In this document: positions 1 to 13,680 of the stretch, piece after piece
How positions within the stretch are numbered: position 1 is the stretch's first letter
Layout: each line of letters begins with the position of its first letter
Virus record (IMG/VR): IMGVR_UViG_2706794665_000009
Strand: one strand, 5' to 3'
From: a virus
Taxonomy: Duplodnaviria; Heunggongvirae; Uroviricota; Caudoviricetes
DNA: 13,680 nt
The notes under the pieces: model-generated
What the model saw: the letters and a program-made list of their open reading frames with translations, nothing else
What the model was told of the DNA's origin: nothing
The model's database searches: none
Program-made: the position numbers and the translations under genes

Positions 1-1
1 G

Positions 2-178
2 GCGGAAGGCATTAATTTTAATCAGAACAATCACGTGGTGATTCAGAACGACGGCCCCAACGGGCGGGCAGGGCCGCAGCTGATGAAAGCGGTGTATGAG
101 ATGGCCCGCAAGGGGGCACAGGATGAACTCCGGCTGCAGTTGCGTGATGGCGGTATGTTATCAGGGAGCGGTGGATGA
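2..178 (+). CDS. H: Tail tape measure protein H, C-terminal fragment (5' end lies outside the window)
   Basis: Open frame from the window edge ending ...LQLRDGGMLSGSGG with TGA at 176-178, overlapping the M start in an ATGA junction as in lambda H/M. Identity rests on position and this junction; the fragment is short. Confidence 0.75.
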   Translation, partial: AEGINFNQNNHVVIQNDGPNGRAGPQLMKAVYEMARKGAQDELRLQLRDGGMLSGSGG

Positions 179-504
179 AAACCTTTCGCTGGAAAGTGAA
201 GCCGGATATGGAGGTGAACTCGCAGCCATCGGTGCGTGAAGTGCGTTTTGGTGACGGGTACTCACAGCGTATGGCGGCAGGGCTGAATGCTGACCTGAAA
301 ACATACAGGGTGACGCTTTCCGTGACCCGGGAGGAGGCCCGGCATCTGGAAGCGTTCCTGGCAGAGCACGGTGGCTGGAAGGCATTTTTGTGGAAGCCAC
401 CCTATGCATACCGGCAGATAAAGGTGACCTGTGCCGGGTGGTCTGCGCGGGTCGGGATGTTGCGCGTTGAGTTCAGCGCGGAGTTTAAGCAGGTGGTGAA
501 CTGA
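175..504 (+). CDS. M: Tail tip assembly protein M
   Basis: 109-aa ORF (MKTFRWKVKP...SAEFKQVVN) matching lambda gpM in length and sequence as recalled; start overlaps the H stop and stop overlaps the L start (TGATG). Confidence 0.93.
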   Translation: MKTFRWKVKPDMEVNSQPSVREVRFGDGYSQRMAAGLNADLKTYRVTLSVTREEARHLEAFLAEHGGWKAFLWKPPYAYRQIKVTCAGWSARVGMLRVEFSAEFKQVVN

Positions 505-1202
505 TGCAGGATATTCGCGAAGAAAGTCTGAACGAGTCGGTTAAGTCAGAGCAGTCACCGCGGGTGGTACTCTGGGAAATCGACCTGACGGTACAGGGTG
601 GTGAGCGGTATTTTTTCTGTAATGAGCTGAATGAAAAAGGGGAGCCGGTCACCTGGCAGGGGCGTAAGTATGAGGCATACCCGATTGACGGCAGCGGCTT
701 TGAGATGAACGGCCGGGGCAGCAGTGCCAGACCGTCGCTGACGGTGTCCAATCTGTTCGGTCTGGTCACCGGGATGGCGGAAGACCTGCAGAGTCTGGTG
801 GGGGCCACGGTGGTCCGCCGCCGGGTGTATGCCCGTTTTCTGGATGCGGTGAATTTCGTTGCGGGCAATCCGGCGGCGGACCCGGAGCAGGAGCTGAGTG
901 ACCGCTGGGTGGTGGAGCAGATGTCGCAGCTGACAGCCATGACGGCCTCGTTTGTGCTGGCTACACCGACCGAGACGGACGGGGCGCTGTTTCCCGGTCG
1001 CATCATGCTGGCGAACACCTGTATGTGGGATTACCGGGGAGATGAATGCGGGTATAACGGTCCTGCGGTGGCGGATGAGTTCGACAACCCCACCACGGAT
1101 ATCCGTAAGGACAGATGCAGCAAGTGCATGCGCGGGTGTGAACTGCGCAGGAATGTCGGCAATTTTGGCGGTTTCCTTTCCATTAATAAACTTTCGCAGT
1201 AA
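504..1202 (+). CDS. L: Tail tip protein L
   Basis: 232-aa ORF (MQDIREESLNE...GGFLSINKLSQ) with the same length and near-identical termini to lambda gpL as recalled, including the Cys-rich C-terminal region (CMWDYRGDECGY...CSKCMRGC). Confidence 0.93.
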   Translation: MQDIREESLNESVKSEQSPRVVLWEIDLTVQGGERYFFCNELNEKGEPVTWQGRKYEAYPIDGSGFEMNGRGSSARPSLTVSNLFGLVTGMAEDLQSLVGATVVRRRVYARFLDAVNFVAGNPAADPEQELSDRWVVEQMSQLTAMTASFVLATPTETDGALFPGRIMLANTCMWDYRGDECGYNGPAVADEFDNPTTDIRKDRCSKCMRGCELRRNVGNFGGFLSINKLSQ

Positions 1203-5800: not shown

Positions 5801-6353
5801 CCTGACACCGGACGGAAAACTGACCGCTAAAAATGCAGATATCAGTGGCAGTGTGAATGCGAACGCCGGGACGCTCAACAATGTCACAATTAATGAGAAC
5901 TGTCAGATTAAGGGGAAACTGTCAGCCAACCAGATTGAAGGCGATATAGTCAAAACAGTGGGTAAGGCTTTTCCGCGGGACTCCCGGGCACCGGAGCGGT
6001 GGCCATCAGGGACCATTACCGTCAGGATTTATGACGATCAGCCTTTTGACAGGCAAATTGTTATTCCGGCGGTGGCATTCAGCGGCGCTAAACATGAGCG
6101 GGAGAATAACGATATTTATTCGTCATGCCGCCTGATAGTACGGAAAAACGGTGCTGAAATTTATAACCGTACCGCGCTGGATAATACGCTGATTTACAGT
6201 GGTGTTATTGATATGCCAGCTGGTCGCGGCCACATGACGCTGGAGTTTTCGGTGTCAGCATGGCTGGTGAATAACTGGTATCCCACAGCAAGTATCAGCG
6301 ATTTGCTGGTTGTGGTGATGAAGAAAGCCACCGCAGGCATCAGTATCAGCTGA
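2880..6353 (+). pseudogene. J: Host specificity protein J (central tail fibre / tail tip), full length but interrupted by an in-frame TAG at 3540-3542
   Basis: Track ORFs 2880..3542 (220 aa) and 3543..6353 (936 aa) are in the same frame, separated only by TAG. The combined 1157-codon product matches lambda gpJ end to end as recalled (MGKGGGKAHTPREAKDNLKST... through ...[23 protein letters not shown]... to the C-terminus). SD-like AGGGGAAGG precedes the ATG at 2880. Confidence 0.9.
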
Positions 6354-6370
6354 ATTTTATAACCCATATA

Positions 6371-6397
6371 CGGGCGCCAGAAATGGCGCCTTTTTTA
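6371..6397 (+). terminator. Intrinsic terminator downstream of J
   Basis: GGCGCCA (6372-6378), loop GAAA, TGGCGCC (6383-6389), then TTTTTTATT. Confidence 0.7.
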
Positions 6398-6420
6398 TTG
6401 CAGAAAAGCGAGAGGTAATT

Positions 6421-7020
6421 ATGCGTAAAGTTTGTGCAGCCATTTTGTCCGCAGCCATCTGTCTGTCCGTATCCGGTGCGCCTGCATGGGCGTCTGAACA
6501 TCAGTCCACACTGAGCGCGGGGTATCTTCATGCCCGTACGAACGCTCCCGGCAGCGATAATCTGAACGGGATTAACGTGAAATACCGTTATGAGTTTACG
6601 GACGCGCTGGGGCTGATTACGTCCTTCAGTTATGCCAATGCTGAGGATGAGCAAAAAACGCACTACAGCGATACCCGCTGGCATGAAGATTCTGTGCGTA
6701 ACCGCTGGTTCAGCGTGATGGCGGGGCCGTCTGTACGCGTGAATGAATGGTTCAGCGCGTATGCGATGGTGGGTGTGGCTTACAGCCGTGTGTCGACTTT
6801 CTCCGGGGATTATCTCCGCGTAACTGACAACAAGGGGAAAACGCACGATGTGCTGACCGGAAGTGATGACGGTCGCCACAGCAACACGTCTCTGGCGTGG
6901 GGGGCTGGCGTGCAGTTTAACCCGACCGAATCCGTAACCATTGACCTTGCTTATGAAGGTTCCGGTAGTGGCGACTGGCGAACGGATGCATTTATTGTTG
7001 GTATCGGATACCGTTTCTGA
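6421..7020 (+). CDS. lom: Lom outer-membrane beta-barrel protein (Ail/Lom/PagC/OmpX family), prophage moron
   Basis: 199-aa ORF with a signal-peptide-like N-terminus (MRKVCAAILSAAICLSVSGAPAWA) and a C-terminus ...AYEGSGSGDWRTDAFIVGIGYRF matching lambda Lom as recalled; same position as lambda lom between J and stf; GAGAGG SD upstream. Confidence 0.92.
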   Translation: MRKVCAAILSAAICLSVSGAPAWASEHQSTLSAGYLHARTNAPGSDNLNGINVKYRYEFTDALGLITSFSYANAEDEQKTHYSDTRWHEDSVRNRWFSVMAGPSVRVNEWFSAYAMVGVAYSRVSTFSGDYLRVTDNKGKTHDVLTGSDDGRHSNTSLAWGAGVQFNPTESVTIDLAYEGSGSGDWRTDAFIVGIGYRF

Positions 7021-7171: not shown

Positions 7172-10100
7172 ATGACAGTAAAAATTTCTGGCGTGCTTAA
7201 AGATGGCACAGGAAAACCAGTACAGAACTGCACCATTGTGCTGAAGGCCAGACGAACCAGCAGCACGGTGGTGGTGAACACGGTGGCCTCTGAAAATCCG
7301 GATGAAGCCGGACGTTACAGCATGGATGTTGAGCATGGTCAGTACAGCGTCACCCTGCTGGTTGAAGGTTTTCCGCCTTCACATGCCGGGACCATTACCG
7401 TCTATGAAGGTTCCAGATCAGGTACGCTGAATGATTTTCTCGGTGCCATGACGGAGGATGATGTCCGACCGGAGGCACTGCGCCGCTTTGAGCAGATGGT
7501 GGAAGAGGTGTCACGTAACGCCTCCGCGGTTGCACAGAATACGGCAGCCGCGAAAAAATCAGCCAGCGATGCCAGTGCATCAGCCAGCGAGGCGGCAACT
7601 CATGCAACCGATGCTGCAGCCTCAGCACGTGCCGCCAGCACGTCAGCCGGACAGGCCGCGTCGTCGGCTCAGTCAGCGTCTTCCAGCGCAGGAACGGCAT
7701 CGACAAAGACCCGTGAAGCAGCAAAAAGTGCTGCTGCTGCAGAGTCATCAAAAAGCGCGGCAGCTACCAGCGCCAGTGCCGCGAAAACGTCAGAAACGAA
7801 TGCCGCAGCATCACAAAAATCGGCAGCCACTTCTGCATCCACAGCGACCACGAAGGCGTCAGAAGCTGCCACCTCGGCACGGGGTGCGGCGGCCTCAAAA
7901 GAGGCAGCGAAATCTTCAGAAACGAATGCATCATCAAGTGCCAGTAGTGCAGCTTCCTCGGCAACGGCGGCAGGAAATTCCGCGAAGGCGGCAAAAACGT
8001 CCGAGACGAACNNNNNNNNNNNNNNNNNNNNNNNNNNNNNNNNNNNNNNNNNNNNNNNNNNNNNNNNNNNNNNNNNNNNNNNNNNNNNNNNNNNNNNNNN
8101 NNNNNNNNNNNNNNNNNNNNNNNNNNNNNNNNNNNNNNNNNNNNNNNNNNNNNNNNNNNNNNNNNNNNNNNNNNNNNNNNNNNNNNNNNNNNNNNNNNNN
8201 NNNNNNNNNNNNNNNNNNNNNNNNNNNNNNNNNNNNNNNNNNNNNNNNNNNNNNNNNNNNNNNNNNNNNNNNNNNNNNNNNNNNNNNNNNNNNNNNNNNN
8301 NNNNNNNNNNNNNNNNNNNNNNNNNNNNNNNNNNNNNNNTGCTTCAAAAGATGAGGCGACCAGACAAGCGTCAGCAGCGAAAGGTAGTGCCACGACAGCA
8401 ACAACGAAAGCATCAGAGGCGGCAGGCAGTGCGACGGCTGCATCTCAGAGCAAAGTTGCTGCTGAATCCGCGGCAACGCGCGCCGAGACAGCAGCAAAAC
8501 GGGCAGAGGATATTGCATCCGCCGTGGCGCTGGAGGATGCGAGCACGACGAAAAAGGGGATAGTACAGCTCAGCAGTGCAACAAACAGCACCAGTGAAAA
8601 GCTGGCGGCAACGCCAAAGGCAGTTAAAACTGTTAAAGATAGTTCAGTTCAAAAAACTGGCGACACAATGGGAGGGCAGTTAAAAATCAGCACGATAAAT
8701 GCTCTTCGAATATTCAACCAAGCCTTTGGCCTTATTTTTAGGCGTTCCGAAGATCATCTTCATCTTATTCCGACTAATGAAGGGGAGGGGGAAAATGGAG
8801 ACATCGGTTCATTAAGACCATTCTCTATAAACTTAAGATCAGGGTTGGTGTCCATCGGTAATGGACTAAAAGTTGGTGGTAGTGTTACTGGTAATTTGAC
8901 CGGAAACGCAGATACTGCGACCAAGATCAAGACAGCACGTAAGATTGGGGGCGTGGCATTTGATGGATCGGCAGATATCAACTTGCCTGGAGTCAACGCT
9001 ACCGGTAATCAAAACACTACAGGTAATGCTGCGACCGCCACGAAACTTCAGGCAGCCAGAACGATTAACGGTGTGTCATTTGATGGTAGTGCAAATATCA
9101 CATTGACCCCTTCAAATATTGGGGCATTGGCATTAACTGGAGGGACTCTTTCAGGTGGTTTAACTGCTGCTGGTGAGGTTATTTCAAGGTCAGCAAATGG
9201 TCTGCGTATTGCCTATGGCAACTATGGATTCTTTATCCGAAATGATGGATCAAACACATATTTTATGTTGACAGATTCGGGTAACAGTCTTGGTACGCAC
9301 AATAGCTTAAGGCCGTTTATAATTAGTAACCATACTGGCAATGTTACAATTGCAACTAAATTAAACGCGAGTGGTGGTATCACTGGATCTTTATCGGGTA
9401 ATGCAAGCACAGCAACCAAATTGCAAACTGCAAGGACAATTAACGGCGTAAAATTTGACGGCTCGGCAAATATTGAAGCGTTTCCGCCAGGTGTTCCGCT
9501 GCCGTGGCCATCAGATACACCACCTGCAGGTTATGCAATCATGCAGGGGCAGACGTTTGATAAGGCAGCATATCCGAAACTGGCTATTGCCTATCCTTCA
9601 GGTGTTATTCCAGATATGCGCGGCTGGACAATCAAGGGCAAACCCGCCAGTGGCCGGGCCGTATTGTCTCAGGAACAGGACGGCATAAAATCGCACACCC
9701 ACAGCGCCAGCGCATCCAGTACGGATTTGGGGACGAAAACCACATCGTCGTTTGATTACGGCACTAAATCCACGAATAACACCGGGGCGCATACGCACAG
9801 TCTGAGTGGCTCTACGGGGTCTGCCGGTGTTCATACTCATGGTAATGGTATTCGTTGGCCAGGAGGCGGCGGTTCTGCGTTAGCATTTTATGATGGCGGT
9901 GGGTTCACTTATGTCCAGAATTCACAGTATCAAGTAAGCCCGGAGACTTCTTCCTATAGATCGTATTATCAACGTATTCAGACACAGTCAGCAGGTGCTC
10001 ATACCCACTCGCTGTCTGGTACTGCAGCAAGTTCTGGCGCACATGCACATACTGTAGGTATTGGTGCGCATACGCACTCCGTTGCGATTGGTTCACATGG

Positions 10101-10185
10101 ACACACCATCACCGTTAACGCTGCGGGTAACGCGGAAAACACCGTCAAAAACATCGCATTTAACTATATTGTGAGGCTTGCATAA
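7172..10185 (+). CDS. stf: Side tail fibre protein Stf; interrupted by an N-run (8012-8339) with a reading-frame change across it
   Basis: N-terminus [28 protein letters not shown]... and the Ala/Ser/Thr-rich repetitive region match lambda Stf as recalled. After the gap the product continues in a different frame (codons from 8341; track ORF 8524..10185) with ...[42 protein letters not shown]..., three tail-fibre repeats (TATKLxxARxIxGVxFDGSAxI) and a His-x-His-rich tip ending ...[22 protein letters not shown]. Confidence 0.88.
8012..8339. other. Unresolved sequence (328 N) inside the repetitive part of stf
   Basis: Run of N; length is not a multiple of 3, and the stf frame differs on either side. 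Confidence 1.
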
Positions 10186-10769
10186 TGGCATTCAGAATGA
10201 GTGAACAAGCACGGACCATAAAAATTTATAATCTGCTGGCCGGAACTAATGAATTTATTGGTGAAGGTGACGCATATATTCCGCCTCATACAGGTCTGCC
10301 AGCAAACAGTACCGATATTGCACCACCAGATATTCCTGCTGGCTTTGTGGCTGTTTTCAACAGTGATGAGGCATCGTGGCATCTCGTTGAAGACCATCGG
10401 GGGAAAACGGTTTATGACGTAGCGTCAGGGGACGAGTTATTTATTTCTGAACTCGGTCCGTTACCGGAAAATGTTACCTGGTTATCGCCGGAAGGGGAGT
10501 TTCAGAAGTGGAACGGCACAGCCTGGGTGAAGGATACGGAAGCAGAAAAACTGTTCCGGATCCGGGAGGCGGAAGAAACAAAAAACAACCTGATGCAGGT
10601 AGCCAGTGAGCATATTGCGCCGCTTCAGGATGCTGCAGATCTGGAAATTGCAACGGAGGAAGAAACCTCATTGCTGGAAGCCTGGAAAAAGTATCGGGTG
10701 TTGCTGAACCGTGTTGATACATCAACTGCACCTGATATTGAGTGGCCTACGAACCCTGTCAGGGAGTAA
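10185..10769 (+). CDS. tfa: Tail fibre assembly protein Tfa
   Basis: 194-aa ORF ([44 protein letters not shown]...) near-identical to lambda Tfa as recalled; start overlaps the stf stop (TAATG). Confidence 0.93.
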
Positions 10770-10818
10770 TCATTGGGATTATGCCGCAGCACGTCTTAAG
10801 CAAGAACGTGCTGCGGTT
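10608..10818 (+). repeat. Direct repeat copy A (~211 bp): tfa 3' end plus ~50 bp downstream including a hairpin
   Basis: Aligns without gaps across the coding part to 11657-11868 at roughly 85-90% identity by eye, with scattered substitutions. Confidence 0.85.
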
Positions 10819-11548: not shown

Positions 11549-11818
11549 ATGCTGCCGCAGCATAGCGATATTGAAATAGCCTGGTATGCTTCGATACAGC
11601 AGGAGCCGAATGGCTGGAAGACCGTCACCACACAGTTCTACATCCAGGAATTCAGTGAGTATATTGCGCCACTGCAGGATGCAGTAGATCTGGAAATCGC
11701 AACGGAGGAAGAAAGATCGTTGCTGGAGGCATGGAATAAATATCGGGTATTGTTGAATCGTGTTGATACATCAACTGCACCTGATATTGAGTGGCCTGCA
11801 AATCCTGTCAGGGAGTAA
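11549..11818 (+). CDS. Tfa-like C-terminal domain ORF (89 aa), probably a remnant of a second tfa allele
   Basis: C-terminal 55 aa (...[53 protein letters not shown]) are homologous to the Tfa C-terminus at 10605-10769; the N-terminal 34 aa are unrelated to the Tfa N-terminus. Confidence 0.5.
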
Positions 11819-11868
11819 TCATTGGGATTATGCCGCAGATACGTCGTATGCAGGAACGTGCTGCGGTT
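11657..11868 (+). repeat. Direct repeat copy B (~212 bp), partner of 10608-10818
   Basis: Same as copy A; homology ends at ...gaacgtgctgcggtt in both copies. Confidence 0.85.
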
Positions 11869-12459: not shown

Positions 12460-12729
12460 NNNNNNNNNNNNNNNNNNNNNNNNNNNNNNNNNNNNNNNNN
12501 NNNNNNNNNNNNNNNNNNNNNNNNNNNNNNNNNNNNNNNNNNNNNNNNNNNNNNNNNNNNNNNNNNNNNNNNNNNNNNNNNNNNNNNNNNNNNNNNNNNN
12601 NNNNNNNNNNNNNNNNNNNNNNNNNNNNNNNNNNNNNNNNNNNNNNNNNNNNNNNNNNNNNNNNNNNNNNNNNNNNNNNNNNNNNNNNNNNNNNNNNNNN
12701 NNNNNNNNNNNNNNNNNNNNNNNNNNNNN
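12460..12729. other. Unresolved sequence (270 N) inside the Rha-like gene region
   Basis: Run of N. Confidence 1.
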
Positions 12730-13007
12730 CCAGTAAATCCCATTACGAGGAACATGAAGCCGTCTTTTGTGATCAGGTAGCATCGTGATTCACGTTCTGC
12801 GCCGTTGCCAATTTCGACAGTCTGAACATCGGCCGAAAAGTTGGCTGATGTAAATTCGGGAGAGCAGTCGAGTGTGTCAATCTTAGCTAAAACGTGTTTA
12901 TGTTGTTTATCGAAGTAGTCGGCAACAGCTTGAGAGGTGGTAACCAGGCGACCATCTTTGAAAAAGACTTTTGGTGACTCGTTAGAAAAAGTTATAGCTG
13001 TATTCAT
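12730..13007 (-). CDS. Phage regulatory protein, Rha family (antirepressor-like), N-terminal part; 3' end in the N-run
   Basis: ATG at 13007 (- strand) preceded by GGAG with 9-nt spacing; product MNTAITFSNESPKVFFKDGRLVTTSQAVADYFDKQHKHVLAKIDTL...CYLITKDGFMFLVMGFT resembles the Rha/pRha N-terminal domain as I remember it. Confidence 0.6.
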
Positions 13008-13032
13008 ATGTGATGACTCCAATTAATTGGAT

Positions 13033-13066
13033 GATCACCACCTCTGACGCCAATCAGGGAGGTGGT
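13033..13066. repeat. 10-bp perfect inverted repeat with 14-nt spacer, 26 bp upstream of the Rha-like start (candidate operator or 5' UTR hairpin)
   Basis: tcaccacctc (13033-13042) and gaggtggtga (13057-13066) are exact reverse complements. Confidence 0.45.
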
Positions 13067-13582
13067 GAGACGTACAGGGTTGGCGTAACCGGTCATCACA
13101 AAACCCGGCGCGGATTTCTCCGCCCCTGCACGCCCCACCATAATGCGAATGTGGCAATGCTTAACGCAAAAAAAACCGCAAACGCGGCTATGCGTTGTGA
13201 TGTTATCCGAGACGCCAATCCCGACAACCGATTTTGCGGTTGTGTGAGGAATATAGCCCCGGAGAACAAAAACTGTCAACGGGCAAAAAAATTTCCGTTA
13301 TCAGGAATGTATAAAATTAAAGCGATCGAGCAAAAAATCCTTTCTGCAAAACTAAAAAAGATTTCAATAAAATCAGGCAGTTAAAAACACGGAAAACGGT
13401 ATAAAAAAGCGCCTCAAAATCCTGTTTTTTCTTTCAGATACAATGTCTTATTGCATTTTTTAAAACATGTCAGTGTGGTACATGGATATCGATACCATCG
13501 CCAATTATAAACTGGGCGGTGCACAGCAACATGATAGCGTACGCCTCGATCCGTGGGTGTTTATGTTCTCAGCAGGATATCG

Positions 13583-13680
13583 GGTAATGACTCCAACTTA
13601 TTGATAGTGTTTTATGTTCAGATAATGCCCGATGACTTTGTCATGCAGCTCCACCGATTTTGAGAACGACAGCGACTTCC
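13583..13680 (-). mobile_element. IS1 insertion sequence, terminal 98 bp (right end, inverted orientation); remainder lies beyond the window
   Basis: From 13583 the + strand reads GGTAATGACTCCAACTTATTGATAGTGTTTTATG..., the reverse complement of the IS1 right terminal inverted repeat as recalled; the - strand encodes the InsB C-terminus. Confidence 0.9.
13598..13680 (-). CDS. insB: IS1 transposase InsB, C-terminal fragment (5' part outside the window)
   Basis: - strand translation ...KSLSFSKSVELHDKVIGHYLNIKHYQ with stop (complement of 13598-13600), matching the InsB C-terminus as recalled. Confidence 0.85.
   Translation of the reverse strand, partial: KSLSFSKSVELHDKVIGHYLNIKHYQ

Follow-up and report, generated by a model that had tools for sequence, protein, structure and literature searches.

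The final part of the window (by which we mean the whole 13,680-nucleotide stretch of phage DNA that was analyzed) is the attR of a known lambda-like prophage of the PPompW type, integrated within the host gene ompW, with an RNA switch on one side and an IS1 element on the other. We are highly confident that the interval consists of four known elements placed end to end: an IsrK/C4 RNA switch, the P arm of the attachment site, the core with the 3' end of ompW, and IS1. All of these components belong to described families (the PPompW attR, the IsrK/C4 leader, the ompW remnant, and IS1), and nothing in the interval is new. Their identities, boundaries, and homologies are established, as is a deletion next to IS1.

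Public genomes already contain annotated sequence that is nearly identical. When 13010–13680 was compared by megablast with 5,426 complete E. coli genomes, 101 genomes matched 13010–13582 at about 99% identity, and the matches ended exactly at the IS1 boundary. At the matched loci, RefSeq annotates an "ash family protein" and an "OmpW family outer membrane protein, missing N-terminus," followed by yciE, yciF, yciG, and trpA. The assignment of the attachment site rests on relatives that are 99.5% identical over 13010–13582; the window itself contains neither attL nor int.

An earlier note on this DNA, made without database searches, had suggested a prophage end and expected attR here. This was correct: 13464–13582 is host ompW, and everything to the left of 13464 is prophage. 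A prophage edge that had been described as non-coding and rich in A-tracts resolves into a recombination arm and a small-RNA switch, and a short ORF that abuts an insertion sequence can be the tail of a host gene that was split by phage integration. Beyond correct annotation, the importance of these results is small.

The ompW remnant and the att core

These features lie between the phage arm and IS1:
13464–13582, plus strand: displaced native 3' remnant of ompW (K-12 codons ~172–211, the last 40), without the last 7 nt (the break falls between ..CG and TTTTTAA)
13464–13501, no strand: att identity segment, 38 bp common to attB, attL, and attR (three-way comparison)
13471–13497, no strand: invariant minimal core CAGTGTGGTACATGGATATCGATACCA, 27 bp (five-sequence alignment with distant relatives)
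13475–13480 and 13493–13498: imperfect inverted repeat GTGGTA / TACCAT (TACCAC in relatives), candidate core-type Int sites

Across 13464–13582, 116 of the 119 nucleotides are identical to the 3' end of K-12 ompW. The encoded peptide (a search of 39 amino acids against protein databases had been proposed) matches the Pfam model OmpW (PF03922) with E = 2.2e-13 at model positions 155–194 of 195. Since the K-12 gene ends with ...GGATATCG followed by TTTTTAA, IS1 removed just 7 nt of ompW. Full-length OmpW is an eight-stranded barrel of about 212 amino acids; the window holds a remnant of it, which also lacks the terminal Phe codon. Because the match is to the C-terminus of OmpW, because 7 nt are missing, and because there is an in-frame TAA directly upstream (13461–13463), we conclude that the ORF is the 3' remnant of a gene and not a 5' end.

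The short plus-strand ORF that the earlier note placed at 13482 (MDIDTIANYK...) is real and does run into IS1, although an upstream ATG at 13467 shares its frame. The resulting fusion ORF (13467–13604, 45 amino acids) ends in ...SAGYRVMTPTY, as compared to ...SAGYRF for the native protein, and its stop codon is a TGA inside IS1 (ending at 13604), 19 nt past the boundary.

To define the att identity segment, we compared attB from K-12, the attL of a relative (the 14EC017 prophage), and attR from a relative and from the window. The 38 bp recur at the attL of 14EC017, so a core that is repeated at the other prophage end, which the earlier note had proposed to look for, does exist in a relative. 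In 14EC017 (NZ_CP024134.1), attL joins int (with an Arm DNA-binding domain) and an excisionase gene to a full-length, 217-amino-acid ompW. This ompW is native through ...DIDTTA and then has a divergent, phage-supplied 3' end that finishes with ...DPWVFMFSAGYRF. From the ompW junction, the order of the 14EC017 prophage is tail, head, lysis, and immunity genes, then xis and int. In the relatives, int and xis are at the opposite end of the prophage, beside the P' arm, and these genes fall outside of our window. Lambda-like prophages at ompW (PPompW) were described previously, and their attP was verified by PCR after excision (Nakamura et al. 2021, PMC8112680).

Int exchanged strands within 13464–13501, inside ompW, and the native 3' end (13464–13582) stayed behind at attR. 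In the relatives, a replacement 3' end that the phage brings to attL keeps ompW open.

The P arm

To the left of the core is an AT-rich block with these features:
About 13344–13463, no strand: P arm of the attachment site, kept in attR and conserved among phages with unrelated cargo
13343–13352, plus strand: candidate arm-type Int site TCTGCAAAAC, invariant in five diverged P arms
13371–13383, plus strand: candidate IHF site AATCAGGCAGTTA, with one mismatch to WATCAANNNNTTR and an A-rich tract before it
13383–13430: phased A runs within the P arm, with a predicted bend near 13415

Positions 13280–13463 are 69.6% A+T and contain 12 A/T runs of at least 4 nt in 184 bp, versus 2.05 expected from the window average (about sixfold more); this is the densest such stretch in the window. 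The periodicity of AA/TT at about 10.75–11.5 bp exceeds that of shuffled sequences (p ~ 0.001 for 13344–13463 and p ~ 0.02 for 13280–13463), but these were mononucleotide shuffles and the segment was picked after inspection; the support for phasing is modest. With that qualification on the statistics, both the density and the roughly 11-bp phasing bear out the earlier report of A5–8 tracts at helical spacing at about 13290–13470. The curvature prediction that had been proposed gives a local peak of 33 degrees at 13415, above the 99th percentile for the window (under a wedge model).

The earlier note considered such tracts typical of attachment sites, IHF sites, or promoters. From comparison with other phages, we conclude that the A-tract block from about 13344 to 13463 serves as the P arm in attR. 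The window has 80–88% identity to PPompW records, P-EibA, and Escherichia phage 204576, and this similarity is confined to the part from 13344 rightward (from about 13325 for phage 204576). Upstream of the arm, their cargo differs: PPompW has nleG, P-EibA has eaaA/eibA, and phage 204576 does not have the isrK-rha cassette. In a five-way alignment, homology starts exactly at CTGCAAAAC, at window position 13344, and the 13280–13343 part is specific to the isrK-rha cargo type.

The candidate arm-type Int site also ties the block to the attachment site. The only exact copy of the 10-mer TCTGCAAAAC in the window is the one at 13343–13352, and the same motif is present three times in tandem in the P' arm, between the stop codon of the replacement ompW and the stop codon of int (in 14EC017 and in phage 204576). 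Arm-type repeats are therefore common to P (one copy) and P' (three copies), as expected for an attachment site. In CP025907.1 (phage 204576), attP is intact, with the P arm, the core, a phage-borne ompW end, the three TCTGCAAAAC repeats, int (376 amino acids), and xis (82 amino acids). Within the P arm, a search for a second arm-type site gave just weak GCAAAA-like matches, and we do not claim one.

For IHF, we can point to a candidate site. A scan of the window found no exact match to the IHF consensus in the P arm. The consensus is perfect in two of the five aligned arms, PPompW_132418 and TUM1881 (AATCAATCAGTTA, AATCAAGCAGTTA); the P-EibA arm also has AATCAATCAGTTA, but preceded by C. The flanking sequence CAGTTAAAAACA is invariant across the five aligned arms. 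Near-consensus matches are common (13 in the window versus 9.25 expected), so the candidate site taken by itself is not above chance. We infer that Int, IHF, and Xis bind this arm; for this strain, protein binding and bending are predictions. The single arm-type Int site, the candidate IHF site, and the phased A-tracts would help to wrap an excisive intasome.

A minus-strand RNA switch next to the arm

The earlier note described about 500 bp without a convincing ORF. This is wrong for 13004–13279, where the minus strand has isrK, a C4 RNA, a promoter, and two ORFs; the earlier note did not include this RNA module. The features, with rha, are as follows:
13250–13279, minus strand: PisrK, a sigma-70 promoter (TTGACA, 18 nt, TATATT; 11/12 consensus) that ends 7 nt before the start of isrK
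13169–13243, minus strand: IsrK-type sRNA (Rfam RF01394, 72.2 bits; gathering threshold 50); the third of its three hairpins is an intrinsic terminator with a U-run
13204–13256, minus strand: match to the c4-a1b1 target model RF03163 (43.8 bits, just under the gathering threshold of 46.7)
13220–13211, minus strand: b1 box GAUUGGCGUC within isrK, which carries a1/b1 target boxes for C4
13058–13145, minus strand: C4 antisense RNA with a long outer stem and two inner hairpins (Rfam RF01695, 75.9 bits; gathering threshold 45)
13086–13077, minus strand: b' box ACGCCAACCC in C4, complementary to b1/b2
13055–13046, minus strand: b2 box GAUUGGCGUC, the second target box, within orf45
13004–13141, minus strand: orf45 homologue of 45 codons (MVGRAGAEKS...), with its ATG at 13141 inside the C4 stem and a stop codon that overlaps the start of rha (ATGA)
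13004–13279, minus strand: ORF of 91 codons for an "ash family protein" (RefSeq WP_001296031.1; Pfam Phage_ASH, 2.9e-14)
12730–13007, minus strand: 5' part of rha (antirepressor-like; Pfam Phage_pRha, 3.8e-16; RefSeq "Rha family transcriptional regulator")

IsrK scores above the gathering threshold, has its own promoter, folds into three hairpins, and ends with a terminator hairpin and a U-run. The promoter sequence TTGAC...CGGGGCTATATT is conserved with Gifsy-1 and with four other phages. For C4, the minimum free energy fold reproduces the expected structure (z = -4.8). Together with the b1, b2, and b' boxes and an orf45 that is coupled by ATGA to rha, this structure places the locus among the C4 systems (Rfam clan CL00128), with the regulation being predicted. 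The rest of rha is interrupted by a run of N at 12460–12729.

Across the promoter, IsrK, the C4-like element, and orf45, the nucleotide identity to the isrK-orf45-anrP locus of Salmonella Gifsy-1 is 74%. The promoter, the hairpins (with compensatory changes in hairpin 1), the b1/b'/b2 boxes, and the ATGA overlap are all conserved. Furthermore, isrK and C4 lie in tandem before an Ant/Rha/Bro-type gene in 10 of the 10 homologous phage loci that we fetched. Duplex energies for the whole sequences of IsrK and C4 were barely better than those of shuffles (p ~ 0.03–0.08). Because these energies are marginal, the argument for pairing between IsrK and C4 rests on the conserved b1/b2/b' boxes.

The 91-codon "ash" ORF is probably an over-extension of orf45 and is unlikely to be a real product. 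The TTG at which it starts (13277–13279) forms the first half of the -35 hexamer of PisrK, and neither Gifsy-1 nor most of the homologues have this frame open across isrK. We rejected the 91-amino-acid product on these grounds despite the match to Pfam Phage_ASH, which may partly reflect translation of conserved RNA sequence. The RefSeq call of an "ash family protein" at this locus probably begins in the -35 box of a promoter and overlies two RNA genes.

When transcription in Gifsy-1 passes the IsrK terminator, the resulting mRNA is translationally silent, and short IsrK activates it in trans; translation of orf45 and its coupling to the antirepressor-like gene were shown experimentally (Hershko-Shalev et al. 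2016, PMC4825925). We infer, for this strain, that the same logic operates. Transcription from the sigma-70 promoter would stop at the IsrK terminator to give the sRNA, and read-through transcripts would continue through the C4-type RNA and orf45, which is coupled by ATGA to rha. By homology with Gifsy-1, the long transcript would stay translationally silent until it is paired with short IsrK, and the b' box of C4 may pair with the b1 and b2 boxes.

A variant arrangement is found in two other phages, Stx2a_JNE112618 (1024–1806 of the fetched locus) and PhiR55_1 (997–1683), in which the ORF that starts in C4 is fused in frame to the Rha-domain protein and there is no ATGA overlap.

IS1 and the flanking deletion

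The last element is IS1:
13583–13680, minus strand: right end (IRR side) of IS1, 98 bp, with the terminus GGTAATGACTCCAAC; the transposase reads toward ompW

The terminal repeat GGTAATGACTCC begins at 13583, which is where the earlier note had placed the IS1 end. Thousands of E. coli records have annotated IS1 transposase loci that match this end at 99% or higher. The window, and probably the contig as well, ends inside IS1; a Shigella-type draft assembly is its probable source. We took the orientation from the CDS annotation in two E. coli loci with an ompW-adjacent IS1. The only exact match to the IHF consensus in the window, TATCAATAAGTTG, is inside the IS1 end (13594–13606, minus strand). 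IHF binds the termini of IS1, and the exact match agrees with this.

The exact junction between the ompW remnant and IS1 has no matches in the GTDB representative genomes and occurs in none of the complete E. coli genomes. Looking up the 45-amino-acid fusion ORF gave 18 contigs, including two complete chromosomes (CP022457.1 and CP022459.1). CP022457.1 is from Shigella sonnei 2015C-3566 (PMC6456863). It is 100% identical to the window over 12730–13680, and its IS1 is complete (768 bp, with both canonical ends, at 6117–6884 of the fetched locus). On its far side, this IS1 abuts the yciG-trpA spacer. Compared with K-12, 1661 bp are gone: the last 7 nt of ompW along with yciE, yciF, and yciG. There is no 9-bp target duplication, which had been proposed as a check, around the IS1 of CP022457.1 (whose flanks are AGGATATCG on the left and GGTAAGCGA on the right).

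Because the other flank of IS1 is the yciG-trpA spacer, the absence of yciE, yciF, and yciG points to an IS1-adjacent deletion, and the S. sonnei junction has the signature of one. Deletions of this kind, when promoted by IS1, classically leave one flank at the insertion point and displace the other. The S. sonnei copy is like the known cases, being 768 bp long with one flank displaced by 1661 bp, and there is nothing unusual about it. IS1 went in 7 nt short of the end of the ompW remnant, and in the S. sonnei genomes the adjacent deletion removed yciE, yciF, and yciG. The earlier note had also proposed to look for a continuation of the ORF beyond IS1. There is none in S. sonnei, and the cause is this 1661-bp deletion rather than an ORF that is not real. 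The junction can be documented as a marker of a Shigella/E. coli lineage that lost yciE, yciF, and yciG.

In two E. coli strains, which come nearest to this junction among the complete genomes, independent copies of IS1 lie 15 and 57 nt past the stop codon of ompW in the same orientation. With the window, this makes three independent IS1 insertions within about 65 bp of the ompW stop codon, all in the same orientation (fetched loci 2590–2625 and 2590–2660; window 13583). Loss of yciE-yciF-yciG accompanies two of the three insertions (S. sonnei and E. coli L73). Some draft contigs that share this junction also encode an LRR_TTSS (IpaH-type) domain, in a gene (1–823, minus strand) that adjoins the methyltransferase gene of the prophage; this fits a Shigella origin.

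Alternative explanations

The earlier note read the ORF from 13482 as the 5' end of a gene that was cut by IS1, with the remainder beyond the element. It is true that the ORF extends into IS1, which changes its end, yet this reading has practically no chance of being right, and we consider it refuted. The peptide aligns to the C-terminal 40 positions of Pfam OmpW and the DNA to the 3' end of K-12 ompW with 7 nt missing; an in-frame stop codon precedes the ORF; and in the S. sonnei genomes, what lies beyond IS1 is the yciG-trpA spacer. The ORF is the last 40 codons of ompW, a gene that was split by phage integration and from which IS1 took 7 nt. A second alternative concerns the A-tract block, which could be AT-rich upstream DNA of the isrK-rha cassette (an UP-element, an H-NS target, or other regulatory DNA) instead of an arm. 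Curved, AT-rich DNA typically occurs upstream of promoters and in H-NS targets, the block is directly upstream of PisrK, and its leftmost 64 positions go with the isrK-rha cargo. We nevertheless consider this explanation very unlikely. From 13344, the block is conserved in phages that have nleG or eaaA/eibA in place of isrK-rha; in phage 204576, the core, the P' arm, and int follow it directly; and it has the TCTGCAAAAC motif in common with the P' arm.

Given that the block is a P arm, attR might still be the inert relic of a defective prophage in an IS-ridden (probably Shigella) lineage, with the arm kept because of recent descent. The Shigella-type genomes with the same junction do have rearranged tail-fibre regions, the adjacent IS1, and the 1661-bp deletion, and the window is a gapped draft with int outside of it. 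On the other hand, both the core and the P arm are intact, with 99.5% identity to their counterparts in E. coli prophages that carry int and xis, and 81 bp separate the right edge of the identity segment from IS1, which is more than a B' arm needs. We regard the relic explanation as plausible but somewhat improbable, and it concerns the present activity of the site, not the identity of the sequence as attR.

Comparison to related systems

The PPompW prophages of STEC and EPEC (LC567822 and others) share the integration site in ompW and the core, and their arm is 87.6% identical to the window from 13344 to the end of ompW. The PPompW records annotate a 121-bp "duplication due to insertion" at att. 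They differ from the window in the cargo beside attR (nleG, versus isrK-orf45-rha here) and just to the left of the core (ATCTAC, versus a host-type AACATGT here), and in that the ompW remnant here is truncated by IS1. The window also lacks the 21-bp attB-in-prophage sequence of PPompW.

The layout also resembles lambda attP and attR, with an AT-rich arm of about 120–150 bp at the tail-fibre end of the prophage. There is one copy of the arm-type motif in P and a tandem set of three in P' beside int, like the P'1-P'2-P'3 layout of lambda, and the Int proteins of the relatives have an arm-binding domain (RefSeq). However, the sequences are unrelated to those of lambda, the core is inside a gene, and the relatives carry a substitute 3' end of about 100 bp between the core and P'. 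Also, the P arm of lambda, which carries IHF, Xis, and Fis sites as well, has two arm-type sites, as compared to one clear candidate here.

As for the RNA switch, orf45 has the same length in Gifsy-1 (MVGRMGEPKG..., versus MVGRAGAEKS... here) and the same ATGA overlap. In contrast, the downstream protein here is of the Rha family and resembles AnrP only in the C-terminal ~65 residues (32% identity). Unlike in Gifsy-1, Rfam scans found no isrJ downstream of the Rha-family gene. The cassette is at the right end of the prophage here but next to the Q antiterminator in Gifsy-1. The immI region of P1/P7 has a similar order: target boxes, C4 RNA, target boxes, a small coupled ORF (icd), and the antirepressor (ant). 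In P1, c4 represses ant, while the work on Gifsy-1 describes activation by an upstream sRNA.

Phage-supplied ends of ompW

The phage versions of the ompW 3' end differ mainly between the last two predicted strands: the native gene encodes LGGAQQHD, 14EC017 encodes SDGRKLAKGSYSDN, and phage 204576 encodes SGVTTVKD. The terminal ...DPWVFMFSAGYRF is kept in all of the ompW ends that we compared (14EC017, 48122–48775, minus strand, and phage 204576, 1640–1766, plus strand, in the fetched loci). Given the topology of the eight-strand barrel plan, the variable segment would be the last extracellular loop. OmpW is the receptor for colicin S4. By replacing the last ~35 codons of ompW, the phages might carry out a lysogenic conversion that re-tips a surface receptor and that is effectively irreversible in the IS1 lineage; we view this idea as doubtful. 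If it is true, then loss of the prophage in the IS1 lineage would leave a defective ompW, with the native end lacking its terminal Phe codon and its downstream flank.

Other observations in the window

The window contains three runs of N (1807–2055, 8012–8339, and 12460–12729). Their lengths differ from those of the corresponding sequence in relatives (328 N versus 341 bp, and 270 N versus 50 bp), and they look like scaffold gaps of estimated size. We considered a frameshift in the tail-fibre gene (7172–8563 / 8524–10185) and rejected it as an artefact of the length of an N run. The odd boundaries of the rha ORF are also an N-run artefact.

Rfam model IS009 matches 10528–10726 (plus strand; 225 bits, gathering threshold 117), inside the tail-fibre-assembly gene (10185–10769). 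A tail-fibre-assembly segment of about 215 bp (10604–10818) is repeated with about 89% identity at 11653–11868, downstream of the methyltransferase gene, and RefSeq annotates this second copy as a partial tfa pseudogene.
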